IMG/VR virus record: IMGVR_UViG_3300045988_166916
DNA length: 43,624 nucleotides
Reading direction: 5' to 3' (one strand)
DNA from: a virus
The notes under the pieces are model-generated. The model saw only the letters and a program-made list of their open reading frames with translations. It searched no databases and was not told the DNA's origin. Made by a program: the position numbers and the translations under genes. This document shows, one piece after another, positions 1,271 through 43,624 of this stretch. The first letter of the stretch is position 1. The number at the start of each line of letters is the position of its first letter.

Positions 1271-4200
1271 TTAAAATGGTTTGTCTTCAGTTTCGACGGA
1301 GGCGTCCGTTTCGTCGCTTCCGTCACCGTATGCAATCATTGAGAGACTGATGTCATATTTTTCTTTGAGAGCTGTGTAGTCGAATACCATCGCCGATGTG
1401 ACCTTGCTCTGTGCTGTTTCTGTCGCGGAAACGGCACCGCCAACGCCGAGGTGCGGAAGGAAGCGCACGCCGGATTTCGTGCCCATAAATTCCTCGGATT
1501 TTTGCAGGTATTCTTGGAGAGAGGATTTCGGAAGGAATTTTATGCCGAGATTCTTGCTGTGCATCGTGTAGAGGTCGGCCGCCGGGCCGAAATAAAGTAG
1601 GAGGTACTCGCGGCCACCGGGGAGTTCCTTGCGCTCTTTCTTTTTGGCAAAACACCAGTCCGGGCCGGATATGATTTTATATTCGCCCTTCATTTGGATT
1701 TTGCCGAGGCTGGCCAGCGAGTCGATCGACGACCAGAAGCCGGCGAGTTCGTTGGTTTGCTCGGCTTTTTCATTTTGTATCTGACAGAGCCGTGCGGCGA
1801 TTTCGAGCGTCTCGGCGTAGGTGAACGGCAGTTGCAGCCGTGTTTCGAGGATTCGGAGCGTTGCCAGCAGGGCGCTCCAGTTCTGAAGTATTCGGTCTAT
1901 GACGCCGCGCGTCAGAGTCCGGAGATCGGCGTTTGTCTGGTCGTAGGCTTCGCGGTAGCCTATTTTTACCTTGCGGCGCTCTCGGAGGAGTTCGTGTGTG
2001 AGGTGGGAGAGTCCGCGGTTGCACATGGTCTTGAACTGGTCGTAGCGTTGTTTCTCCTCCTCGCTATGTTTGGATTGGTAGAAGGTCAGCATCACGATTC
2101 GGGACATGAGGGCGTTGTCGGAGGTTGTCATTTCCTGGCCCGTGAGCACGAGTCCGCAACTGATCGCCGTCATGGTCCGCTTTTTCTTGCCGTCCATGCT
2201 CATTTTACTCCGGCCGCTGTTGTCCCATATACCTTTGAGAAATTCGACTTTCTTCGGGTCGATGTCCTCCTTGAACTCGTCGATGTGAACCACGGCATTC
2301 GATACCTCGGCGATCGCTTCGCCGAGCGAGGCTTGTGTCGCGTTCCGAAGGTTGATCGACTCGGCATTGACTTGAAAGGGAGCGACGATGGCGCGCGCCA
2401 TTTGGGTTTTTCCAGTTGCCGGTGGCCCGAACATGTCGAGAATCGGCATGTTCTCGATCGTTGCGCGCACGATGTCCGAAAATAGGGTCGTGAAGTAGAA
2501 ACAGAGGGCTATTTTCGCGTTCTCCCCGAACACGTCGATACATTGTCGGGCGTATTCGTAGAGCGTCACGGTGCTCTGCTGAACGAACACGAATTTTCGG
2601 TGCAGGTTGTAGGTGGTGGTGTCCTCGCGGGCTTCCTTGGATGCGGCCGGGAGGTAGTAGAGTTTGTCGCCGACTTTGATGAGCCCGTAGTCGTTGGCCG
2701 GGATGAACACCTCGCCATCGAAGGCGCCATTGCCCCACGCGAAAAATTCGCCTTGCTTTTGCCATCCGAGTTGCTGTATTTCGCGGGCCGTCGGCGTCTG
2801 TTCGTAGATGTATTTCTTGAGCTGCGTGTATTGCTGTTTCGCCACGACGGCTTCGATGATGTAGTTGCCTTTGCCTTCGATGTTCTTCTGGAAGTTGTCG
2901 AGTGTCGTTACCTGGTCCTGCGGTAATGTGATAAGGCATTTTTCACGGTGGATGTTCTCGATCTCGAACATGCGGTAGGAGGCAGGTCCGTCCCAAATCA
3001 GCACGATCGGGCGGATGATGAAATTCGTCCACGGCATCGCGTTCCCGACCTTAGAGATTTGTCCGTAGTAGCAGTTGTTCTTGACGTAGAACCCGTATTT
3101 TTCCACCAGGTCGGCCTGCTCCTGCTTTTCTTCGCGGATTGCTTCGACCTGGCGCTTGTTTTTCAGCCGGTAGTAGGTCTCGTTCCATATTTTACCCTGC
3201 TTGTCCTCTTTGCCGAATTTGTCGAGGTACATGCGGGCGAGTGTCTCGTCGTAGAAAATGAGCAGGCCACAGATGTAGTTGATGACATCGAGCCGGTCAT
3301 TCTGCGACATGACGCTCCCGACCTTGGTCTGATACATGAAGTCCACGAAGTCGGCCGAATTTTCGGCCATACACTCGTCATAGGATTTTGCGGCCTCGTA
3401 TTTGAAATACTCGTCGGCATCCTTGGCGTCTTTTCCGGGGAGTATCATCACCCGCACGTTCAGCCCTGCCGCCGTGAGAGCTTCGCCATGGCTGACGACC
3501 GCCTTCTGTCCGGCTGTGTCGTTGTCGCCGATGATGACAACTTTCGAGACGATGCGCTTTATCATTCCGATTTGGGTACTCGTGAGGGCGGTTCCCATCG
3601 GTGCGACGGTGTTCTGCTGGCCGATCTTCGCCATGCGGATCACGTCGGGATTCCCTTCGACGAGGTTCAGCACGTCGCGTAAGGCGGCGATGCGTTGTGC
3701 CTCGAAGTACCCGAATAGAATGTCGCCCTTCTTGAAGATGGGCGTTTCTTTGGTGTTGATGTATTTGGGCGGCTCTTTCCCTTCGGCGTTCTTCTTTGAG
3801 TTGATGGCCCGGCCGGTGAAACCGATGACGTTGCCCGTCTGGTTGCGGATCGGGAACATGAGGCGCTGGGTGAAGGCGTCGTATATGTCCCCGTCTGCGT
3901 CGCTGACTTTGATGAGTCCGGCCTTGATGAATATGTCGAGGTTTTCGTGCTGGTCTCGGATGTGGCGGAGTAGAGTTTTCCGGCCGGGGGCGTAACCGAT
4001 GCACCACTCCTCGATGGTTTCCTCGTCCCAGCGTCCGGTGGCGTATTTCTGCGCCGGGTCAGATTGTCGGTACATGGACCGGAAAAATTCGAGTGCGATG
4101 TTGTTGGCGCGAAAGAGTTGATCGCGTTCGAACCGCTTTGCCAATTCTTCGGGTGTCGGCTCTTTCTCCTCCCATTTGATGTCGTAGCGGTTTCCGAGGT

Positions 4201-4453: not shown

Positions 4454-4500
4454 CTTTTCGCGTTTTGGAGGGGCCCCCTCGGACACCCCCCCCGATTGTA

Positions 4501-4707
4501 TTATTCGAGAGTTTCGATTTGGCGCAGGATTATCCCTGCACGGTGATATTGTTCGTAGGTTTCGCTTTGAGGGGCGAACCCGGCTGGCAAGCGATTTTGG
4601 AGCAGCCCCGTTTTGAAGGCCATGATCGCCCGGCGGATCGTGTCGAACTCGTCGCTCGTCAAATCCATGATTGAGACGCGGCCGTTGCTGTCTTTGTCGC
4701 AATACAT
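4501..4707 (-). CDS. Hypothetical small protein (68 aa).
   Basis: The track start at 4713 is GTG. The ATG at 4707 lies 2 nt after the stop of 4710..4919. Confidence 0.5.
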   Translation of the reverse strand: MYCDKDSNGRVSIMDLTSDEFDTIRRAIMAFKTGLLQNRLPAGFAPQSETYEQYHRAGIILRQIETLE

Positions 4708-5697: not shown

Positions 5698-6084
5698 ATG
5701 TTTGATTTTAAGTCGTTTAGAAAAATAAATAATCTGAAACAAAGCGAGGCTGCTGAATATTTCAGTTGTACGCAGGCTTTTATTTCACGGATTGAGAGGG
5801 GAATAAGCCCGGTTCCAAGCCATTTTATAACTAAAATAGAATCTGAGGGGCGTTATAAGATGCCGGATATGGTTCCAAGTCTGAACACGGATTTGAAAAT
5901 TGAGATGCCGCGCGAGGTTTTTGATAAGATGGCTCAGTTGATCGACACGGTTTGTTCGCAACAGGATGTTATTGCGCAACAGCAAAGTGTTATAAATAAG
6001 GTACTTAACCCCCCCCCTCGCAATGAGGCTTCCGTGGATGGCGCAGATTCAGAGGGAAATAGAGGCGCTTCCGCAGTTGGATAA
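5698..6084 (+). CDS. XRE-family HTH transcriptional regulator, candidate CI-like phage repressor.
   Basis: NNLKQSEAAEYFSCTQAFISRIERGISPVP is an HTH_3 motif. The gene is divergent from the early operon and co-oriented with the integrase. Confidence 0.7.
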   Translation: MFDFKSFRKINNLKQSEAAEYFSCTQAFISRIERGISPVPSHFITKIESEGRYKMPDMVPSLNTDLKIEMPREVFDKMAQLIDTVCSQQDVIAQQQSVINKVLNPPPRNEASVDGADSEGNRGASAVG

Positions 6085-7010: not shown

Positions 7011-8192
7011 ATGTTGTCAGTTGAAACTGCGCGAAATTCCGCGCTAAACGAAATTCTTTCTTTCACTTATCCGAAACTACACACCGGCTCCTGCTGGTTC
7101 ATTTCCTTTTATGCGTTCGACCCGGCGAAGGGTGAAATGCGGCGCAAACGGATCAAGATAAATTCGGTGGGGAATGCCTCACAGCGCCGGCGGTATGCTG
7201 CGCAAGTTTGTCATCGTCTTTCTACGAAACTCGAAACGGGGTGGAATCCGTGGGTGGAGGCAGAGGCGGATTATACCTATAAACTATTTTCGGATGTATT
7301 GGTGCACTACCGAAATTACCTCCGGAAGTTACAGGATGACGGTGTTCTCCGAAAATCGACCGTACATGGCTATAATTGTTCGGCGGGTATCATGGAACGT
7401 TGGAATGCGCAACAAGCATCGCCCATTCGTTATGTCTATCAGTTCGACCGTTCGTTTTGTGTGCGCTTTCTGGATTACGTCTATGTTGAACGGGGCAATT
7501 CGCCGACTACGCGCAACAACAATCTGGCGTTTCTCCGGGAGTTCTCGTCATTTCTGGTTCAACACTTATATCTGAAAAGTAAACCGACGGAAGGGCTGAA
7601 GAGTATCGGAAAGGGTGCTGGCAGTAAGAACCGGACGGTCATCGCGCCGGCGGATATGCAACGTCTCCATGACTGGCTTGACGCACACAACCGGCCGTTC
7701 CTGCTGGTCTGCTATTTCCTACATTATATGCTTATCCGTCCGAAGGAGATATGTCGTCTTCGCTTGCAGGACATTAATGTCGCTAAACAAACGGTCTATA
7801 TTGACGGCCAGATTTCGAAAAATAAAAAATCGGGGGTGGTTACGCTTCCGACGCCGATTCTGGAAATGCTCGTCGATTTGGATTATTTCAATGCTCCGAC
7901 TTCGTATTATATTTTCTCTACCGGGTTCCGGCCGGGGCCTAAGTTGTGCAGCGAACGGAGTTATCGCCACTATTGGAATAACGAAATTGTTCCGGCGTTG
8001 AAATTCCCGAAGGAATACAAGTTCTATTCGCTGAAGGATTCGGGTATCACGGATATGCTTCGGTCGGGACTTGACCCTCTTTCCGTTAAGGAGCAGGCGC
8101 GGCACTCGTCGCTTCAGATTACGGATGCCTATACACCACGGGATGTTTTGAACGCTAATCCACGCCTTCAGAGTTACAAAGGTATCTTATAA
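7011..8192 (+). CDS. int: Tyrosine recombinase / phage integrase.
   Basis: 393 aa. LIRPKEICRLRLQDI fits the first catalytic Arg region. EQARHSSLQITDAYT fits the R-H...Y C-terminal catalytic region. The N-terminal SAM-like domain is typical of Bacteroidetes integrases. Confidence 0.9.
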   Translation: MLSVETARNSALNEILSFTYPKLHTGSCWFISFYAFDPAKGEMRRKRIKINSVGNASQRRRYAAQVCHRLSTKLETGWNPWVEAEADYTYKLFSDVLVHYRNYLRKLQDDGVLRKSTVHGYNCSAGIMERWNAQQASPIRYVYQFDRSFCVRFLDYVYVERGNSPTTRNNNLAFLREFSSFLVQHLYLKSKPTEGLKSIGKGAGSKNRTVIAPADMQRLHDWLDAHNRPFLLVCYFLHYMLIRPKEICRLRLQDINVAKQTVYIDGQISKNKKSGVVTLPTPILEMLVDLDYFNAPTSYYIFSTGFRPGPKLCSERSYRHYWNNEIVPALKFPKEYKFYSLKDSGITDMLRSGLDPLSVKEQARHSSLQITDAYTPRDVLNANPRLQSYKGIL

Positions 8193-8733: not shown

Positions 8734-9410
8734 CGTGTTTTCTTGGTAAATTGGATGTATTCAGTATAAACGATCTGTGTGTGCGGGTTCGACGACACGA
8801 CCTCCTGCCGGATTGCTTTCGTGCCCCAGCGGATAAATAGGAATCGCCGCGGAACCCGGTGTACGATTTGCCGGAGGGTGTCGATGCTTGTAACGTGGCA
8901 GCTCACCGAATCGGTCCGGATTATGCCGTCTACGCTCACATGCCGATCCGCCCATCTGAAAATCTTCGCTTCGGGGACTTTCGGCAGTCCGGAGAATTCC
9001 CGATCGAGGGCGGCCTTTACCGAATCGGCAGCCCTTCGCACCCCTGCGCCATATTTCTCCCACGCTGTCGGCTGCGGACCTGCGGGTTCCAGGGGCGCCG
9101 TGATCTGCACTTCGGTCCGCGTGGCCGTCGTGGCCGCCGCCTCCAGCCGCCGGACCTTGATCCGCAGCTCCCGGACTTGCGCGGTCAGTTGTGCGTTGTA
9201 GCGTTCCATCTCCGACGCCCTGAGTTCGAGCACTTGCCGGGATGCGGCGTGTTTTCCGCTCTCGGTTCGATAGAACTCCACGCTGTCGGTCAAGACCTCG
9301 TTGTTGGACTGGACGCGCCTGCGCTCGGCCCGTTCGCCCCGCAGGCGGACCGTTTGCAACCATAACAACCCGCCTATCACGAGCAGGGTGATAATCAGAA
9401 TGCGTTTCAT
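8730..9410 (-). CDS. N-terminally anchored coiled-coil protein, candidate spanin-like or lysis accessory protein.
   Basis: N-terminal TM is ILIITLLVIGGLLWL. A heptad-like Arg/Glu-rich helix follows (RASEMERYNAQLTAQVRELRIKVRRLEAA). ATGA overlaps occur at both ends. It lies downstream of the holin and endolysin. Confidence 0.5.
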   Translation of the reverse strand: MKRILIITLLVIGGLLWLQTVRLRGERAERRRVQSNNEVLTDSVEFYRTESGKHAASRQVLELRASEMERYNAQLTAQVRELRIKVRRLEAAATTATRTEVQITAPLEPAGPQPTAWEKYGAGVRRAADSVKAALDREFSGLPKVPEAKIFRWADRHVSVDGIIRTDSVSCHVTSIDTLRQIVHRVPRRFLFIRWGTKAIRQEVVSSNPHTQIVYTEYIQFTKKTR

Positions 9411-9715
9411 AGTACCTGCCAGTCGTCAGCGAAAATATCCTCCCATGTGGGGATGTAGGACGTTGCATGGGATTTCGAGCAGTCGTCGTTTACTTCGATG
9501 ATCAGCACCTGGTCGTGATACGATATGCTGCCGTCCCCTATTGTTCCGATAACAGCTTTCGCACGATCCGGTAAACTGGTCATGCGGGGAACGACTTCCG
9601 CTGGTACTGTCTGCGGAATCTGTTTGACGATGAACTTACCAGCCCATGTAGGGCTTGAATAACGGCTGAACGCCTCTCCCTCGTTAAGCCGATCGATGAT
9701 TTCGGAGAATTTCAT
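9407..9715 (-). CDS. DUF2829-like small protein (Tad2-like candidate).
   Basis: 102 aa. The N-terminus MKFSEIIDRLNEGEAFSRYSSPTWAGKFIV and C-terminus SYIPTWEDIFADDWQVL match the DUF2829 hallmark: F-x-E-A-x-x-L-x-x-G...R...W near the start and W-x-P-(S/T)-x-x-D-x-x-A-x-D-W-x-V at the end. Confidence 0.55.
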   Translation of the reverse strand: MKFSEIIDRLNEGEAFSRYSSPTWAGKFIVKQIPQTVPAEVVPRMTSLPDRAKAVIGTIGDGSISYHDQVLIIEVNDDCSKSHATSYIPTWEDIFADDWQVL

Positions 9716-10799: not shown

Positions 10800-10880
10800 G
10801 CTTGTTTTTGTCGTTGTTTCGGTTTGCGCCCCGGGCGCCGGTCAGAGCCCCCCGGGGCAATAGGGTTTAATGTTTTAGAA

Positions 10881-11192
10881 CTAAACTAATTCCGCCTCGA
10901 TGTTTCCGGAGGCAGGGATCGGTCCGAACCAACATTCGCCGTTGTTGCTGGCTTCGATATAGAACCGCTCACCTACATGGTCTGTTAACTCTTGGCCTAT
11001 CATGCTGGATAATTCGTTGAACGAGACTCGAACCGTCAGATCGTCTAATACATCGAACCAGCCAAGCCACGAAGTAGTGAGTTCGAACATAAGCTCTATA
11101 TTTTCGCCAGCTTCAACTCCGCATGCGTGCACGTCGATGATGACCTCCCTTACGTCAGTCCCCCCCCCGACTGGGAGATCGAGATCGTACAC
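10881..11192 (-). CDS. Acidic 103-codon ORF. It is either an independent small protein or the frameshift-dependent C-terminal extension of the fibre at 11150..12451.
   Basis: The track start is GTG (minus-strand gtg tac gat ctc...). The first ATG is at codon 35. The ORF overlaps the fibre by 43 nt, and both frames cross the same G9 tract. Confidence 0.45.
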   Translation of the reverse strand: MYDLDLPVGGGTDVREVIIDVHACGVEAGENIELMFELTTSWLGWFDVLDDLTVRVSFNELSSMIGQELTDHVGERFYIEASNNGECWFGPIPASGNIEAELV

Positions 11193-12451
11193 TGTACGGA
11201 CTCGTCTTCGGCCAAAGACAGCGTGACAGACCCGCTGCGGAGCAATCCCGTATTCTGGGGCACCTCGATCTGTATGGTTCCCGAGGTCTCCGTCGCTTGG
11301 GTTTCTGCGGCCTCTTCCCCTACGATCTGCGCTGAAAGGAACTCCCCTGCGATTGCCGCGATCTGCGGTGTTCCGTTCGTCGTGTATGCGAGCTCCAGCA
11401 TCTGCGCCGTCGAGTCGAGCGAATGGCTTGTGACTGCGAATCCGTCGCCGGTCGCCGTCTTTCCGTCCACGGTCAGGAAGTATTCGTCCGGAACCTCCGG
11501 TTCGTCATCAGCTACCCCCCCCGTGGTTATCTCCTCGATGATTTCCGTGATCACAACGGTCGTATCCGAAGAAGAGTCCGTCAGCCTGATACTGAGCGTA
11601 TCAAAGGCAGCTTCTCTATAAGGATTGTTGTCTTCGGTGGGGTCAACATAATTAGCTGTAACCACAAGTGAGGTGTTGGCCGTCAATGACCGTCTGACAA
11701 TGCCCGAAGCTATAAAGTTTATGCCGTCGGACAACAGACACCCGCATGTCTCGCATGAAAATGCGTATGCTGCATTGGCATTGCCAACGTATCCCCGGAT
11801 AATATAATTCGGTTGGTTAGAAAACGCCCGCATGGGAACGGTGACATTCTTATACTGAACCCCGTCCCACGTTATACCGGAGGCTACGACAGTTCTGCCG
11901 CTTCCGCTTTCCGAGGAACCTCCCGGGGTGTAAACGGCCCAGTCTCCGGCACTGGCGACTCCGCCGACCCCCGGTCCTCCGGATATATGGGCGTATGCCA
12001 TGCTTTTTTCCTCCCCGTCCGTCCGAAAAGCAAGCAGTATGCCCTGACGGTAGGTGTCGTCTTCGGAGCCCTTTATGGCGATGTAGATGCCATCGACGCG
12101 CTCCGCCATACCTCCGAAAGGACCATAGTCTCCATCCACGACCGACCCGTTGGCATACCACGTCACGATGGCCCCGGCCGGAACTTCGTTGAGCGATGTG
12201 AGGTCGTAAATGGCGCCGTATTCGCTGATTTCAACGGGTTCGTAAGTCGCAGCTTCCCCGGAGCCGCCCGTCGTTCCGCTTTGGGCATACCCGAGGTTGT
12301 TCCACGATGTTGTTCCGTCCCCGAACTTGAACTTTCGGGTATCGCTTTCGACGCCGATCTCTCCGCGCAGCAATACGGAGTCCGCGGCGCTCCATTGCGC
12401 CGCGGTCCTGTATTGGGGCAGAAACTTTCCCTTTAGAGTCTTCGTAGCCAT
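11150..12451 (-). CDS. Tail fibre / receptor-binding protein (paralog A).
   Basis: The N-terminus MATKTLKGKFLPQYRTAAQWSAADSVLLRGEIGVESDTRKFKFGDGTTSWNNLGY is the conserved phage-fibre N-terminal motif (GExGxExDT-x-K-x-K-x-GDG-x-T-x-WN-x-L). It lies downstream of the tape measure and baseplate genes. Confidence 0.8.
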   Translation of the reverse strand: MATKTLKGKFLPQYRTAAQWSAADSVLLRGEIGVESDTRKFKFGDGTTSWNNLGYAQSGTTGGSGEAATYEPVEISEYGAIYDLTSLNEVPAGAIVTWYANGSVVDGDYGPFGGMAERVDGIYIAIKGSEDDTYRQGILLAFRTDGEEKSMAYAHISGGPGVGGVASAGDWAVYTPGGSSESGSGRTVVASGITWDGVQYKNVTVPMRAFSNQPNYIIRGYVGNANAAYAFSCETCGCLLSDGINFIASGIVRRSLTANTSLVVTANYVDPTEDNNPYREAAFDTLSIRLTDSSSDTTVVITEIIEEITTGGVADDEPEVPDEYFLTVDGKTATGDGFAVTSHSLDSTAQMLELAYTTNGTPQIAAIAGEFLSAQIVGEEAAETQATETSGTIQIEVPQNTGLLRSGSVTLSLAEDESVQCTISISQSGGGLT

Positions 12452-12456
12452 CGTCG

Positions 12457-13593
12457 TCAGGCGTTGCCGTCCAGAATGAAGACATTCTCCTCGTCGGTGA
12501 GATAGGCTTCGGCAGCGGCCTTTGCCCGGGCCTCCGTGTAGTAGAGGTTGTCACCCTCTGCAAGATCGGTCGTGCTCTTTGCCGCGAATGCGGAATTGAA
12601 CCGTGCCTGCGTCCAGTAGAGATTCGTGCCACCCTCGGCGATGTTGTCCGTGGAGAGCACCACGACGCCGGTCTTTCCGTTCACGGATACCACGTCGCAC
12701 TCGGGCATGAGGAAGAGTTTCCAGTTGGCCTCCACCGAGGGGTCGTTCCCCGCAAGGATGTAGGTCTTGCCCTCGTCGGTGCGTCGACAGACATCGCCCT
12801 GCTGTGCCGTGAGCGCGAGCATCGCGTCCTTCGAGTCGGCGTCGAAGATGTCGGTGATCGCCACCTGGGGTATGATGGAGGTGTCGAGTTTTCCGTCGGC
12901 GCCGATCAGAGGCACGTTTCCGGCCGCTGCCCCGGCGTTTTTCTGCGCTGCGGTTCCGAGTTCGAGCAGGGTGCGGACATCGGCGGGAGCCATGGCGGAG
13001 ATCTTCGTGATGCGGCCCTTGGCGTCCACGGAGATCTTCGGAAGCTGGACATCGGACTGCGCTGTGAGGATCGAGGCGAGGGTCAGGGCCAGCGAGAGAT
13101 TCGCGGAGCCGTCGAACGACCCCGAGGCCGCTGCGTCGCCCGTGACGGCTACGGTCCGCGGTGCTGCGAGCTTGTCGGCTTGCAGGGCGTGATCGACTTT
13201 CCCGCTGGAAGGACCTGCCCCGGCGGCTTTGGCGTAGATCGACGCGAGCATGTCGCCGGCGCCGAGCGCTGCGAGGTCGGAGGCCAGCGCCACCTGCTCC
13301 CAGGCGTTTCCTGCGGTCTTCTTCAGCAGGATGTAGAGTTTCCCTGCGGTCTGATCGTAGTAGAACGTTCCCGGGATGCCGTCCACAGTAGTGGGCGCAG
13401 CAGTTCCGACTTCGAGGCCCTCCGAGCGGTAGGGAAGATCGTTCCAGGCGGTGGTTCCATCGCCGGTCTTCCAATGGCGGGTGTCGGATTCGATGCCTGC
13501 CTCGCCCTTCAGAAGGACGGGATTTTGTTCGGCCCATTCGGCCGCGGTCTGCGTCTTGAGCAGAAGACGCGCTTTTACAGTTTTTGTTGCCAT
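12457..13593 (-). CDS. Tail fibre protein (paralog B).
   Basis: The N-terminus MATKTVKARLLLKTQTAAEWAEQNPVLLKGEAGIESDTRHWKTGDGTTAWNDLPY carries the same motif as 11150..12451. The remainder is Ala/Gly-rich fibre-like sequence. Confidence 0.8.
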   Translation of the reverse strand: MATKTVKARLLLKTQTAAEWAEQNPVLLKGEAGIESDTRHWKTGDGTTAWNDLPYRSEGLEVGTAAPTTVDGIPGTFYYDQTAGKLYILLKKTAGNAWEQVALASDLAALGAGDMLASIYAKAAGAGPSSGKVDHALQADKLAAPRTVAVTGDAAASGSFDGSANLSLALTLASILTAQSDVQLPKISVDAKGRITKISAMAPADVRTLLELGTAAQKNAGAAAGNVPLIGADGKLDTSIIPQVAITDIFDADSKDAMLALTAQQGDVCRRTDEGKTYILAGNDPSVEANWKLFLMPECDVVSVNGKTGVVVLSTDNIAEGGTNLYWTQARFNSAFAAKSTTDLAEGDNLYYTEARAKAAAEAYLTDEENVFILDGNA

Positions 13594-13611: not shown

Positions 13612-14334
13612 TTATCTGTTGTTGTCCAAAATGAGTTCGTCTTCGTCGTCTATTCCGACTCCGATACATTTGTAGCAAAGTCCGGTTTCGTCCCATCGGT
13701 AGGATTTGTCGGCTGTGGTATCGATGTAGAGCACTTCCGGATTTCCTACGGCCGGGAATTGAAGGTATGATCCGAAATGCAGGGACTCGGCCGTTCCGCC
13801 GGCAGCATCCATATCCTGCCATTGTAGATCGTAGTCTTTGTCGGACTTTTTCACGAGGACCTGGCCGGCGCTGCCGCCGGATGGGATTCCTATGCCCCGG
13901 AGCATCCTCTCCAGAACGACCGTTGCGGCTGCCGGCGTTTCCGAGTCGGTTCTCCCGGCCCAAAGTTCCCATCCGGTTAGCTGCGGGAGCACCTTCTTCT
14001 GCTCTCCGCTTTCGAACAAGTCATTGGGAACGTTGCGCAGCAGCCGGAAACAGAGCTTCCCGGGAGGCAGGCGGTGGTCTTTGAACTCTATGAGCATCGC
14101 ATCCGGCGTATCGTCCACGGGGCGGCAGTTCATGTATTGTTTTCCGTCGAACGCCGCCGTGAAGGATGTTCTGGACTTGTTCGGGCCTTCGTAGGTGTTG
14201 AAAACGATCTTCCAGGGATATTCCGGACGCTTGCCGTCCGGGAACCGGAAGATGAAGGGGAAATCCTCTTCGAAATTCTGCCGGAACAGGGCCGTGCGCT
14301 GCATGGCCATTATTTCTGTAATCGATGTGTTCAT
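13612..14334 (-). CDS. Tail/fibre-associated protein sharing a C-terminal module with 14374..15066.
   Basis: The C-terminus LHFGSYLQFPAVGNPEVLYIDTTADKSYRWDETGLCYKCIGVGIDDEDELIL aligns with IHFGPRELFPETGIAGTLYIDTANERAYRWDEAAAVYRCVGWGIDSSDEIIL in the next gene. Confidence 0.65.
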   Translation of the reverse strand: MNTSITEIMAMQRTALFRQNFEEDFPFIFRFPDGKRPEYPWKIVFNTYEGPNKSRTSFTAAFDGKQYMNCRPVDDTPDAMLIEFKDHRLPPGKLCFRLLRNVPNDLFESGEQKKVLPQLTGWELWAGRTDSETPAAATVVLERMLRGIGIPSGGSAGQVLVKKSDKDYDLQWQDMDAAGGTAESLHFGSYLQFPAVGNPEVLYIDTTADKSYRWDETGLCYKCIGVGIDDEDELILDNNR

Positions 14335-14373: not shown

Positions 14374-15066
14374 TTACGCCTCGTCCTGCGCGGAGAGTAT
14401 TATTTCGTCGCTGCTGTCGATGCCCCATCCGACACAGCGGTACACGGCCGCCGCTTCATCCCAGCGGTAGGCCCTCTCGTTTGCCGTGTCGATGTAGAGC
14501 GTTCCGGCAATTCCGGTCTCCGGAAACAGTTCCCGGGGGCCGAAATGGATCGGTTCCGCCCGACATCCCGTATCTTGGTTTCCTATCCACCAGTTCCCGT
14601 TCTCTCCGATGTGGGGCGTGACGCCGTCTTTGCCGCGGTATACCGTGCCGATGAATGCTTCGATCTCTGCCGACGCTTTCACGTCGTCGCTGGGTCCGTT
14701 CCAGAGCCAAATCCCGGGACAGGAGGGGATGCAGATATTCCTCGCGGTGTTGTTCCAAAACGCATCGGGCGAGCTGATCCATAGCTTCTGGCAGAGCCAC
14801 CCGCTGCCGAGGAAACATTTGGACAGGGGGACATATACGCAGAGCCTGTTGTCGTCGAGTTTTTCGCAATGATCGTATATGCCGTTTCTGCGGGACACCT
14901 TGAATCGGACGCCGTTGTCGGCGAAGAATTCGATTTCGAAATCTATGCTGTCCTCGGGAACGGGAGCCGGGACCGGATTCCCGTTGTCATCGGATTCCTG
15001 AAACTGTTCGATGAATGAAAAATCGGTTTGGTTGTTGAGTCGTATTTTTGCGGCTTTCGTTTCCAT
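14374..15066 (-). CDS. Tail/fibre-associated protein (230 aa).
   Basis: The track start at 15120 is TTG, so I chose the first ATG at 15066 (METKAAKIRLNN). It contains GKDGVTPHIGENGNWWIGNQDTG, a motif common in phage fibre proteins, and shares its C-terminal module with 13612..14334. Confidence 0.65.
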   Translation of the reverse strand: METKAAKIRLNNQTDFSFIEQFQESDDNGNPVPAPVPEDSIDFEIEFFADNGVRFKVSRRNGIYDHCEKLDDNRLCVYVPLSKCFLGSGWLCQKLWISSPDAFWNNTARNICIPSCPGIWLWNGPSDDVKASAEIEAFIGTVYRGKDGVTPHIGENGNWWIGNQDTGCRAEPIHFGPRELFPETGIAGTLYIDTANERAYRWDEAAAVYRCVGWGIDSSDEIILSAQDEA

Positions 15067-15123
15067 GTGCAGGTCGTTTGAGGCAAAATTAGGAGGTCGG
15101 CGTCCGCTTTGAAAGGACAAATC

Positions 15124-24545: not shown

Positions 24546-24821
24546 TTATTGCTGTGTATGCCAACTATTCGGGGGGGGTATCACTGCACGTTCCGTGCAG
24601 TCCTTTTCGAGGTGAGCGATGATGTTGTAGACCTTCCGTTCGCTCACAGCATACCTTTCAGCGAGTACCGCGACGATATAGGTCATTTTTTCGCGGCGGG
24701 CCTTCATGGCCCGGTAGTCGTTATATAGTGGAAGGTGCTTGTGGTCGTCGGGACGGATGCCTATTCGTTCGAAACGGTCGAGTATTTCCCGGTTGAATGC
24801 GATGATCTCGTATATTTTCAT
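24546..24821 (-). CDS. Mor/C-family transcription activator-like protein.
   Basis: 91 aa. The C-terminal HTH MTYIVAVLAERYAVSERKVYNIIAHL resembles the Mor transcription activator family as found in Bacteroidetes elements. Confidence 0.55.
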   Translation of the reverse strand: MKIYEIIAFNREILDRFERIGIRPDDHKHLPLYNDYRAMKARREKMTYIVAVLAERYAVSERKVYNIIAHLEKDCTERAVIPPPNSWHTQQ

Positions 24822-42101: not shown

Positions 42102-43043
42102 TCAGAATAATTCTTGTGTCTCATCCGGCAGTTCAACACCCATACGCCGGAGGGCGTGGCGGAGTGTGTGGCCGTTGTTGGAGTAATTCATTGCCATTTT
42201 GTAGAGTTTCGGATGCAGGGTGTAAAGTACCCGAAAGCGACTCCCCCCCCCGAGGTGGGCGCCGAAACCGCAGAATACGCAGCCGGTGCGATCTATGCCC
42301 GGTACGTCGTAAATTGGGCAGTATGACACCGACAATTTGCGGATGTAGGCCCAACAGTCCGCATTCGTCCATATCGACAACGGAGCGCTGTGTGTCTTGC
42401 GCGGGTCGTCTGAAAAGGAGTTGCAACCGCCGTGACTGATATATGTAATCTCTCGTCGTTTACTTTCTCCTGCCATAGTTCCAACCATTGGGAGGCTGAG
42501 TGTTGAAGCGTTATATGTTGCAAAAGGTCTTTTTTTCAATATCTCGCAACATTTTTCCGAGGTCATGTACGGTTCTGTGCTTAGATAGCGCCATTTTTTC
42601 GCAAGTATGCCTTGCTGGCGTTTCCCATCGCCATAGAGCCGATAGTTTCTCAGTTTTTCGCTTTTGGATGTGCGGATGTCTCGCACGGCATGCGCCTGCT
42701 CTTTGCTGACCAACGGGAACCCGTATCGGGCGATCACTTCCCGCGGCGTCAGTTGCGGCCGGATGATCGTGACGTTGGGTGTGTGTCGAACGAAGCTGAC
42801 GATTTCCGGCCATTCGTTGCCCGTCGAACAGAACACACCCGGCATATCTGGATCGACGAAGCGTCGGGCGATGTCGAGTAGTACTGTTGAGTTCAGTCCG
42901 CCGGAAAATGAGACGTAGGGCTTGCGGCCGTGCTTTTCACAGTAGTTTATGAACGCCTCGATTGCTCCGACGGTGTGGTCGATTTTCTGCTCCAAAGGCC
43001 ACGCTTGGCGGGCGTGGAGGTCTGAAAGAGTGATTTTGCCCAT
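42102..43043 (-). CDS. PAPS-reductase-like / PP-loop ATP pyrophosphatase family protein.
   Basis: YVSFSGGLNSTVLLDI is a PP-loop (SGGxxS). A C-terminal Cys pair occurs in RTGCVFCGFG. The track start at 43049 is TTG, so I used the ATG at 43043, 2 nt after the Dam stop. Confidence 0.75.
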   Translation of the reverse strand: MGKITLSDLHARQAWPLEQKIDHTVGAIEAFINYCEKHGRKPYVSFSGGLNSTVLLDIARRFVDPDMPGVFCSTGNEWPEIVSFVRHTPNVTIIRPQLTPREVIARYGFPLVSKEQAHAVRDIRTSKSEKLRNYRLYGDGKRQQGILAKKWRYLSTEPYMTSEKCCEILKKRPFATYNASTLSLPMVGTMAGESKRREITYISHGGCNSFSDDPRKTHSAPLSIWTNADCWAYIRKLSVSYCPIYDVPGIDRTGCVFCGFGAHLGGGSRFRVLYTLHPKLYKMAMNYSNNGHTLRHALRRMGVELPDETQELF

Positions 43044-43045
43044 GA

Positions 43046-43624
43046 TCAAAAAAGTTTTTGCGCACGCACGGGCGGTTCATAGTTGCACCATACGCACTCT
43101 TGCATGACCGTTCCCGAGCCGTTCACAATGTTGCTACGAATGTTATTGCGCTTGAACGGAAACTTTACTTTGTGCCAGTCCGCATAGAGCCGATTTGTCA
43201 GCGGGCAATCGTAACTGCTCACCATGGCCATCCCTTCTATCCGGTGTAGGCGTTCGGCCAGTCGCTCGTGATCTTCATCCGTGAAGTCGAAGCGATAATC
43301 GCCATTTTTATTATGGCCGCCTCGGCTTTCCAGAGGATAGGGCGGATCGCAGTAGAAGAAAGCGCCGGGGAAATCAATTCGGTCGATGGCTTCCATGTAG
43401 TCGCAGTTCATGATCTGAAAGTTGTTGCGAATCTCTGCCGCTACTTCATGCAACTTTTCTACTCCGTTTCTCCATCGGGAAACACCCTCGCCTCCTTGTG
43501 CGTTGATATGTTGTTTGCACATGTGCCAGCCTTTTTTCTGTCTTTGGGCCCCGAGTCCGAAAAAGGATTGCCGTGCACGGATGTAGAATCGACGGGCACG
43601 TTCAATATCGGAGATCTCCATACT
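43046..43624 (-). CDS. N6-adenine DNA methyltransferase (D12/Dam class), C-terminal part of the gene that begins at 352 across the junction.
   Basis: FFYCDPPYPLE is the DPPY motif. The frame is continuous with 1..352 through the 55-bp overlap, giving about 291 aa once the duplicate is removed. Confidence 0.85.
   Translation of the reverse strand, partial: SMEISDIERARRFYIRARQSFFGLGAQRQKKGWHMCKQHINAQGGEGVSRWRNGVEKLHEVAAEIRNNFQIMNCDYMEAIDRIDFPGAFFYCDPPYPLESRGGHNKNGDYRFDFTDEDHERLAERLHRIEGMAMVSSYDCPLTNRLYADWHKVKFPFKRNNIRSNIVNGSGTVMQECVWCNYEPPVRAQKLF
43570..43624. repeat. Terminal direct repeat, copy 2 of 2 (identical to 1..55).
   Basis: Same 55-mer as 1..55. Confidence 0.95.

Follow-up and report, generated by a model that had tools for sequence, protein, structure and literature searches.

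The subject of this report is a run of nine G residues at the end of a tail-fibre gene in a viral DNA of 43,624 nucleotides (IMG/VR virus record IMGVR_UViG_3300045988_166916), which in its full length is referred to as the window. The run lies on the minus strand, where the fibre open reading frame (ORF) is overlapped by a small ORF at positions 10,881 to 11,192. On our analysis this G9 run is probably a contingency tract of the polyG type, hypermutable and situated in the tail-fibre gene of a temperate Alistipes phage (human-gut Bacteroidota). It was observed that the gene carries two polyG tracts, that both lie at domain boundaries, that the downstream ORF is homologous to the C-termini of related fibres, and that variants differing in tract length coexist on otherwise identical sequences.

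On the minus strand the fibre ends as cag tcg ggg ggg gga ctg acg taa, read as ...QSGGGLT followed by the stop (TAA, 11150..11152). The overlapping ORF, 103 aa long, reads the G run as Gly-Gly-Gly; its first ATG is codon 35 (11088..11090), and its codons 1–11 are the end of the preceding BACON-like module of the fibre in the wrong frame. Two homopolymers of at least about 7 nt occur within the coding sequence of the fibre ORF, namely this G9 run, designated tract 2, and a G8 run, designated tract 1. A sequence-only reading, made earlier from the letters of the window, had described the fibre end, the G9 run, the 43-nt overlap, the GTG start, the ATG at codon 35 and the second G8 run, and all of these were exact to the base. 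When the products of slippage at tract 2 were computed, G10 was found to join 431 residues of the fibre to 92 further residues, giving 523 aa, and G8 to end the protein as ...SGGD and a stop. The same ACTGACGTAA bases after tract 2 are read as T-D-V in the G10 frame, and the junction peptide of the fusion is ...SQSGGGTDVREV..., as against a C-terminus of ...SQSGGGLT for G9. As read from its sequence, the window is in the state tract 1 ON, tract 2 OFF, so that the encoded fibre is predicted to stop at the BACON-like module. The C-terminal domain would be carried as a silent extension, one slip away.

To look for natural alleles, the proteins predicted for each tract length were searched for by exact-sequence look-up among about 15 billion proteins. 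Seventeen of the 20 sequences looked up were present, with the following approximate counts. When tract 1 was in frame, G9 at tract 2 (433/434 aa) was found on 630 contigs (107 + 523), the G10 fusion (523/524 aa) on 66 (5 + 61), G8 (431/432 aa) on 17 (2 + 15) and G12 (435 aa) on 5. Out-of-frame tract 1 was represented by G9, with a 314-aa product ending in ...TTGGGS (242 contigs), and by G10, with a 313-aa product ending in ...TTGGG (11 contigs). The tract-2 counts for these tract-1-OFF genomes were taken from the separately called BACON-like ORF, and were at least 1000 contigs for G9 (106 aa), 83 for G10 (196 aa), 33 for G8 (104 aa), 18 for G11 (105 aa) and 2 for G12 (107 aa). A variant with a deletion between the tracts was found as G10, G9 and G8 (405, 315 and 313 aa, respectively) on 6 contigs each. 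Tract 2 thus ranges from G8 to G12, and tract 1 occurs as G8, G9, G10 and G9AG, the last being 11 nt long and in frame, with one extra Gly.

The 523-aa fusion that the sequence-only reading had expected from a G10 tract exists residue for residue as WP_256169894.1 of Alistipes shahii (the 5 contigs above, the other 61 encoding the 524-aa equivalent), and the immediate truncation (Asp, then a stop) that it had expected from G8 is represented by the 17 contigs of that class. The 434-aa G9 form is RefSeq WP_302384023.1, annotated as 'MULTISPECIES Alistipes'. At the DNA level, G10 was confirmed in eight fusion-encoding contigs (L036–L043), including the isolate genome GCA_024462315.1. Over 2196 nt the window (G9) showed no single-nucleotide polymorphism against one of these contigs (L039, G10), and the A. 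shahii isolate contig, the tract aside, is identical to it over this length. Two other pairs of haplotypes differ in a tract alone: L014 is identical to L036 except for tract 2, and L006 and L017 are identical to L016 except for tract 1. G10 was seen on three tract-1 backgrounds, and hence arose more than once. A comparison of tract lengths among related genomes, as the sequence-only reading had proposed, therefore returned a variable tract, also on identical haplotypes; the two outcomes that would have spoken against its idea, a fixed tract or a G9 produced by misassembly, were not what was found. Among the IMG/VR and metagenome contigs carrying the module, tract 2 was G9 in 14 of 14, while tract 1 varied (G8, out-of-frame G9, and G9AG). 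This sample suggested that tract 2 is invariant, a sampling effect that the exact look-ups corrected.

How the downstream ORF is related to the fibre became apparent when the hypothetical fusion was used as a search query. The search returned a 405-aa protein that is identical to the window fibre up to ...EEITTGGG and continues directly as TDVREVIIDVH.... The module between the tracts is precisely missing from this protein, and the body is joined in frame to the 'next ORF'. The deletion variants (proteins P0002-4; loci L008-10 and L015) lie on contigs of 38–43 kb with the same gene order, and their single remaining tract is G10 or G9A. The C-terminal domain is in frame in these 405-aa proteins and also in a 418-aa (P0007) and a 522-aa protein (P0008). 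The last belongs to a relative at 48% identity (L011), in which a single frame runs through body, BACON-like module and C-terminal domain; each junction has a G9 tract, and one of the two is read in a different codon phase (CGG GGG GGG GAA). In five further IMG/VR loci, the domain is in frame behind a BACON-like domain without any polyG; the in-frame fusion loci lacking polyG are named L051-53, L055, L056 and L060. Copies of the domain that appear as 'standalone' genes of 87-88 aa lie either behind a frameshifted polyG junction or behind a TAG. The frame at the junction is -1 in L019, L020, L025, L054 and L059, +1 in L026-28 and L058, and 0 in further relatives. The window lineage has GAG at the codon where other lineages have Met, and the 69-aa NCBI product that starts at the first ATG (WP_195496994.1) would miss strand 1 and part of strand 2 of the domain. 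Gene callers give the 103-aa ORF in at least 1000 contigs. The comparison of these sequences indicates that the downstream ORF is the C-terminal domain of the fibre and not a separate gene.

The domain content of the fibre was then compared with the positions of the tracts. The N-terminus carries the Mtd_N domain ('hyaluronate lyase N-terminal' anchor domain), and was also matched by PHROG tail-fibre families. Residues 384-427 matched BACON (PF13004) with E=0.0011 and 19.4 bits, below the 25-bit cut-off; since the match is below the Pfam gathering score, the module is named 'BACON-like' only. The alignment reaches position 60 of the 61 in the profile and ends six residues before the stop. The structural model of the full-length fibre was too poor to use, with a mean predicted local distance difference test score (pLDDT) of 45, and the BACON-like module was the one part of it with moderate confidence (pLDDT 70-83). 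For the C-terminal 92 residues, AF2 (AlphaFold2) gave a compact beta-sandwich with a pLDDT of 95.6, beginning a few residues past the Gly linker. As the BACON match ends near the fibre stop and the C-terminal fold starts after the Gly linker, both tracts are at domain boundaries. No Pfam or PHROG family matched the C-terminal domain. Its best fold matches (E about 0.01) were Bacteroides DUF3823 proteins and phage tail-collar fibres, and were weak and of a generic beta-sandwich. By these profile and model assignments, the order along the fibre is the Mtd_N anchor and body, tract 1, the BACON-like module, tract 2, and a predicted beta-sandwich C-terminal domain of 88-92 aa.

The composition of the tracts was examined for signs that they are more than chance. 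G/C runs of at least 8 nt numbered 6 in the window compared with 1.2 expected under a first-order Markov model, a five-fold enrichment, and those of at least 9 nt numbered 3 compared with 0.3 expected under the same model. GGG makes up 17.6% of the Gly codons in the genes of the window; nonetheless, both linkers are all G. In the off-frame states at the two tracts, a stop was reached within 0-2 codons in 4 of 4 cases, compared with 8-10% of the off-frame positions of the gene, a comparison made post hoc. Taken with the tracts of the distant relative, the rare codon, the immediate stops and the enrichment of G/C runs make the tracts look maintained.

We propose that slipped-strand mispairing during DNA replication would alter the tract length by single bases. 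A G10 state at tract 2 would lead to read-through and to the 523-aa fibre with its C-terminal domain, and with G9 or G8 a stop would be met two codons or one codon past the linker, respectively, the fibre then ending at the BACON-like module. Reading would continue past tract 1 with G8 or with the 11-nt G9AG, and G9 or G10 would give an immediate stop and a fibre that consists of the body alone. The BACON-like module would be lost through recombination or slippage from one tract to the other, which would leave body and C-terminal domain as the 405-aa protein. A phage or prophage population could thus hold at least four fibre versions that differ in their distal domains. The assignment of the variants to slipped-strand mispairing is made by analogy with bacterial contingency loci. 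If, as we presume, the distal domains bind receptors, a population of lysogens would release virions of mixed specificities, in what would be bet-hedging over variation of the host surface; it is plausible that the switch alters host range.

Several results weigh against this interpretation and have to be set beside the competing explanations. The contig counts are approximate, as the same sample may be assembled by several pipelines, and the evidence consists of assembled contigs, from which switching that is fast and reversible within a lineage can be presumed at most, the recurrence of G10 on three tract-1 backgrounds being an indirect sign of it. The fold search of the C-terminal domain against PDB and BFVD gave no match with E < 0.01. 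The locus is mostly OFF, with about 9% of the tract-1-ON contigs carrying G10. The share of G10 at tract 2 was 9.3% with tract 1 ON and at most 7.3% with tract 1 OFF (Fisher p=0.14); tract-2 lengths are thus alike whether translatable or not, and give no sign of selection on the state of tract 2. (A G10 excess in tract-1-OFF genomes, considered earlier, vanished when the G9 denominator was counted.) In the relatives L057 and L021-24, a TAG removes the C-terminal domain. L056 has TCG at the TAG codon of L057, which identifies the TAG as a nonsense mutation, and such losses mean that relaxed selection on prophages fits as well as adaptive switching does. The serious rival is accordingly neutral decay, according to which the homopolymers are merely mutation-prone and frameshifts in them are the first pseudogenising changes of an unselected prophage fibre gene, the variation being real and without function. 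The predominance of OFF states at both tracts, the independence of the tract-2 distribution from translatability, the nonsense mutations in relatives and the integrated state of many carriers (contigs of up to 424 kb) all agree with it. We nevertheless regard it as unlikely. The relative at 48% identity keeps G9 at both junctions, one in the other codon phase; the tracts are written in the rare GGG codon from end to end; all four off frames have immediate stops; and in-frame states recur on several backgrounds. The C-terminal domain, unreachable as it is at G9, is also undecayed, its 279 nt of DNA being 100% identical in 18 of 18 contigs, which makes an estimate of dN/dS within the lineage impossible. 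Finally, the window is a circular 43.6-kb assembly, which makes it probable that the element is active.

The other explanations change what is made from the G9 allele, or deny that it matters. The sequence-only reading had suggested a phase-variable or dual-isoform fibre tip arising either by a slipped-strand change in the DNA or by a -1 ribosomal slip; the DNA route gains from the natural G8, G9 and G10 alleles, and the ribosomal route found no support. A programmed -1 ribosomal frameshift, or slippage of RNA polymerase, on G GGG GGG would produce the 433-aa and 523-aa proteins from one G9 genome at a fixed ratio. Read in the fibre frame, tcG GGG GGG gga has the form of an X XXY YYZ heptamer, and the C-terminal domain follows in the -1 frame. 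G9 is also the most frequent allele, and the domain, whose conservation is perfect, has no evident start of its own, with GAG in place of the ATG of relatives. However, the region 11060..11175 of the minus strand folds no better than its shuffles (minimum free energy -30.8 compared with -32.9 kcal/mol, z=+0.63), and no Rfam element was matched. The relatives are in -1, +1 and 0 frames at the same junction, which a -1 device would not tolerate, G9 is equally modal where tract 1 already blocks translation, and the fusion is already explained by the G10 alleles, so that frameshifting appears quite improbable. Less credible still is an arrangement of two genes, in which the fibre is accompanied by a small accessory protein translated on its own (an assembly chaperone or tip adhesin) and the G run is incidental; we rate it as very unlikely. 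Proteins of 87-88 aa beginning 'MVIIDVH...' are called downstream of fibres in many contigs (P0081, P0083, P0085), and the Met is conserved in most lineages, but the 'standalone' copies are behind a frameshifted polyG or a TAG in what is otherwise an in-frame fusion (TCG in L056, TAG in L057), and the window has GAG at the Met codon. The product from the first ATG, at 69 aa, would be without strand 1 and part of strand 2, and the domain is a predicted beta-sandwich with no match to a chaperone family in Pfam or PHROG. An error of assembly or sequencing, with G10 and an uninterrupted gene as the true state, can be set aside almost entirely: homopolymers are error-prone and G10 versions of the gene do exist, but G9 is present in all 14 of the independently assembled module-bearing contigs from IMG/VR and metagenomes and in the 630 contigs counted above from NCBI, JGI, ENA and Logan (including the RefSeq entry WP_302384023.1), and tract 1 varies in contigs whose tract 2 does not.

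Going beyond the polyG contingency tract itself, a stronger proposal may be put forward tentatively, and we think it doubtful. According to it, the two tracts would be a selected combinatorial domain switch, conserved across a family of temperate Bacteroidota phages, sited in interdomain linkers and with stops engineered in each off frame, and a prophage lineage would continuously emit at least four fibre tips: body; body with BACON-like module; body with BACON-like module and C-terminal domain; and body with C-terminal domain. In addition, every cell might make a little of the long form by RNA or ribosomal slippage on G9. If real, such a switch would serve gut prophages as a main means of keeping pace with variation of the Alistipes capsule and surface.

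The features of the locus are collected in Table 1.

Table 1. Features of the fibre locus, in coordinates of the window
Feature	Coordinates	Strand	Remarks
Fibre ORF as found in the window, 433 aa	11150..12451	-	In frame at tract 1; at tract 2 the last domain is out of frame
Mtd_N / 'hyaluronate lyase N-terminal' anchor domain, residues 16-48	12308..12406	-	PF18454, 33.2 bits against a cut-off of 26.3
PolyG tract 1, G8, in frame here, ...ITTGGVAD...	11515..11522	-	Gly linker between fibre body and BACON-like module
TAGCTGA adjoining tract 1	11508..11514	-	Gives TAG and TGA in the two off frames
Module between the tracts	11169..11514	-	Acidic/Pro linker (VADDEPEVPDE), then BACON-like beta domain
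PolyG tract 2, G9, OFF here (tract of the sequence-only reading)	11160..11168	-	GGG linker before the C-terminal domain
ACTGACGTAA adjoining tract 2	11150..11159	-	TGA 11155..11157 ends the G8 frame, TAA 11150..11152 ends the G9 frame
C-terminal fibre domain, 92 codons and stop	10881..11159	-	Predicted to lie out of reach of the fibre frame at G9 and to be joined to it at G10
Mechanical 103-aa ORF from GTG	10881..11192	-	In the -1 frame relative to the fibre, with an overlap of 43 nt

The fibre gene lies directly upstream of a holin/endolysin cassette, with a holin, a glucosaminidase and further genes, followed by an integrase. The integrase gene is at 7011..8192 on the plus strand. The two ends of the window carry the same 55 nt as a perfect direct repeat (1-55 and 43570-43624), from which it follows that the assembly is circular and the genome about 43.57 kb long. 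Many of the carriers found by the protein look-up are long bacterial contigs of up to the 424 kb mentioned above, and are thus integrated prophages. A search with the DNA of the fibre region against the INPHARED phages gave no match, and an exact scan for 21-mers, with each species represented by one genome, gave 0 matches; the assignment of the host to Alistipes rests, as the scan was empty, on the names of the exact protein matches. Fibre-like genes lie in series on the minus strand at 12457-13593, 13612-14334 and 14374-15120. The first of these (12457..13593) is a neighbouring fibre gene with the same Mtd_N N-terminus as the fibre studied here, and the other two (13612..14334 and 14374..15120) have a common C-terminal motif in the form of a 60-nt repeat (13687-13746 and 14455-14514, 72% identity). 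In the lysis region, a 102-aa ORF is present at 9407-9715 (minus strand); the ORF at the same position in relatives matches the Tad2-like family PF11195, which is anti-defence (anti-Thoeris). A palindrome, CCCCGGGGGG, is present at 10844-10853, past the stop of the C-terminal domain and ahead of the holin start. In L036-L041 (about 3600-3657), a 1-nt length difference some 30 nt past the stop of the domain moves the holin start between 3653 and 3657. The site of this difference is likely, though unconfirmed, to be the palindrome CCCCGGGGGG, which may be the stem of a terminator containing a G run of variable length.

Among close variants, S71 and N72 of the C-terminal domain (window 10941-10946, ...IEASNNGECW...) are nearly the only differences. 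In the variants P0078, P0079, P0003, P0004 and P0081, the Ser is replaced by Gly, Cys or Asn and the Asn by Asp. This pattern in the sequences suggests that the two residues may be part of a surface loop under diversification. The Mtd_N domain and the changes at A positions of S71/N72 had raised the question of a diversity-generating retroelement (DGR); no template/variable repeat was present in the window, and a reverse transcriptase gene was not searched for. In-frame TAG codons were encountered among the relatives. In two other lineages, L021-L024 with L057 (about 2490-2503) and L029-L032 (about 2435-2445), the fibre and the ORF of the C-terminal domain are in the same frame with one TAG between them; in L029-L032 the TAG is inside a BACON-like domain, a widespread variant (P0080, in 118 index blocks). 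A suppressor tRNA or stop recoding was considered for these TAGs and rejected, as no tRNA was present in the window or the loci and the TCG of L056 shows a nonsense mutation.

The remaining long G/C runs of the window were also inspected. One is a C8 run at 4486-4493 of the plus strand (G8 on the minus strand), in the short gap that separates a 70-aa ORF, whose end is at 4501, from a primase/helicase-like gene of about 1060 aa with its likely ATG at about 4450. The same non-coding tract is C9 in two IMG/VR relatives (L034, 6842-6879; L035, 4983-5020) and so varies too. A G9 run on the minus strand at 42243-42251 codes for GGG in a PAPS-reductase-like gene (42102..43049; phrog_424). It is 7 nt long in the sole IMG/VR relative found (L033, 4835-4874), and by this 2-nt difference the frame of the gene would change. 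A C9 run at 6009-6017 encodes PPP near the C-terminus of a 128-aa helix-turn-helix (HTH) regulator (5698..6084, plus strand), and a run of 8 at 24571-24578 encodes PPP near the C-terminus of a 91-aa ORF (24546..24821, minus strand; phrog_17790). For these last two runs, no IMG/VR relatives were found with the flanks used.

The prophage is common in Alistipes, an abundant genus of the human gut, and variants of its fibre are present on well over 2,000 public contigs. It offers a natural, already-sampled case of what is probably phase variation in the presumed receptor-binding protein of a gut phage. As isolates are available in both states (G10 in the A. shahii genome GCA_024462315.1, G9 in other Alistipes), the link between tract, fibre tip and host range is directly testable. 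There are consequences for annotation as well. RefSeq splits the one fibre gene into hypothetical Alistipes proteins, WP_195496993.1 for the BACON-like part (106 aa) and WP_195496994.1 for the C-terminal piece (69 aa), and the 103-aa ORF given by gene callers is spurious. When host range is predicted from metagenomic consensus sequences, minority tract states are missed.

Fletchervirus phages of Campylobacter, which are lytic myoviruses, provide the closest comparison. Their receptor-binding genes are described as carrying polyG tracts of 7-11 G, and changes of these tracts as yielding subpopulations that infect hosts without the usual receptor (Sorensen et al. 2021, Cell Rep 35:109214, as summarised in bioRxiv 10.1101/2025.10.21.683753). 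As far as that summary goes, the two systems share G runs within phage receptor-binding genes and single-base length changes that shift the frame. They differ in that the phage of the window is temperate and has a host among the Bacteroidota, that its two tracts are in interdomain Gly linkers, and that its OFF states would be nested C-terminal truncations and not loss of the protein. The lineage of the window also shows a tract-to-tract deletion of a whole module.

In coliphages T2 and T4, contingency loci consist of homopolymer repeats with reversible frameshifts via polymerase slippage, and have been read as bet-hedging (Gomez, Barrick & Waters 2025, bioRxiv 10.1101/2025.10.21.683753). Most of these repeats are short runs of A/T, found for example in agt and rIIA, and in coliphage tail fibres repeats of at least 6 bp are under-represented (bioRxiv 10.1101/2025.10.21.683753). 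The tracts of the window, in contrast, are G8-G9 and lie within the fibre gene. PolyG/polyC contingency loci are also present in surface genes of Neisseria and Haemophilus. In Campylobacter jejuni, polyG/polyC contingency operates through slipped-strand ON/OFF frames with coexisting length variants (PMC10877375, PMC8713573). Unlike these bacterial loci, the locus described here is on a mobile prophage and governs a virion protein. Homopolymer slippage is not known as the usual mode of phase variation in Bacteroidales, in which DNA inversion dominates.

The invertible tail-fibre segments of phages Mu and P1 (Gin/Cin) are cited as a determinant of host range, and polyG tracts are listed among the possible host-range determinants of gut prophages (PMC12823448). 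As in Mu and P1, one genome could present alternative C-terminal parts of its fibre, a change of specificity being suggested here by analogy; there, however, the change is by site-specific inversion through a recombinase, and here it would be by homopolymer slippage. The -1 frameshifts of lambda G/GT and dnaX resemble the locus in the overlap of a -1-frame ORF at a slippery run, with potential short and long products. They differ from it in that the window is without a stimulatory structure, the frame relation is not conserved, and the long product is explained by DNA alleles. Mtd of the Bordetella phage BPP-1 has the N-terminal Mtd_N domain (PF18454) as well, and variability of the fibre tip is a common theme. 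Unlike the DGR of BPP-1, the window is without a template/variable repeat pair (a reverse transcriptase gene not having been searched for), and it is tract length that varies and not adenine-directed substitution. In a literature search of incomplete coverage, neither this locus nor fibre switching by polyG tracts was found described for phages of Alistipes or other Bacteroidota. The kind of system, polyG tracts in receptor-binding genes, is therefore already known, and it is the layout that is distinctive: two tracts in linkers, nested truncations, and a deletion between the tracts.

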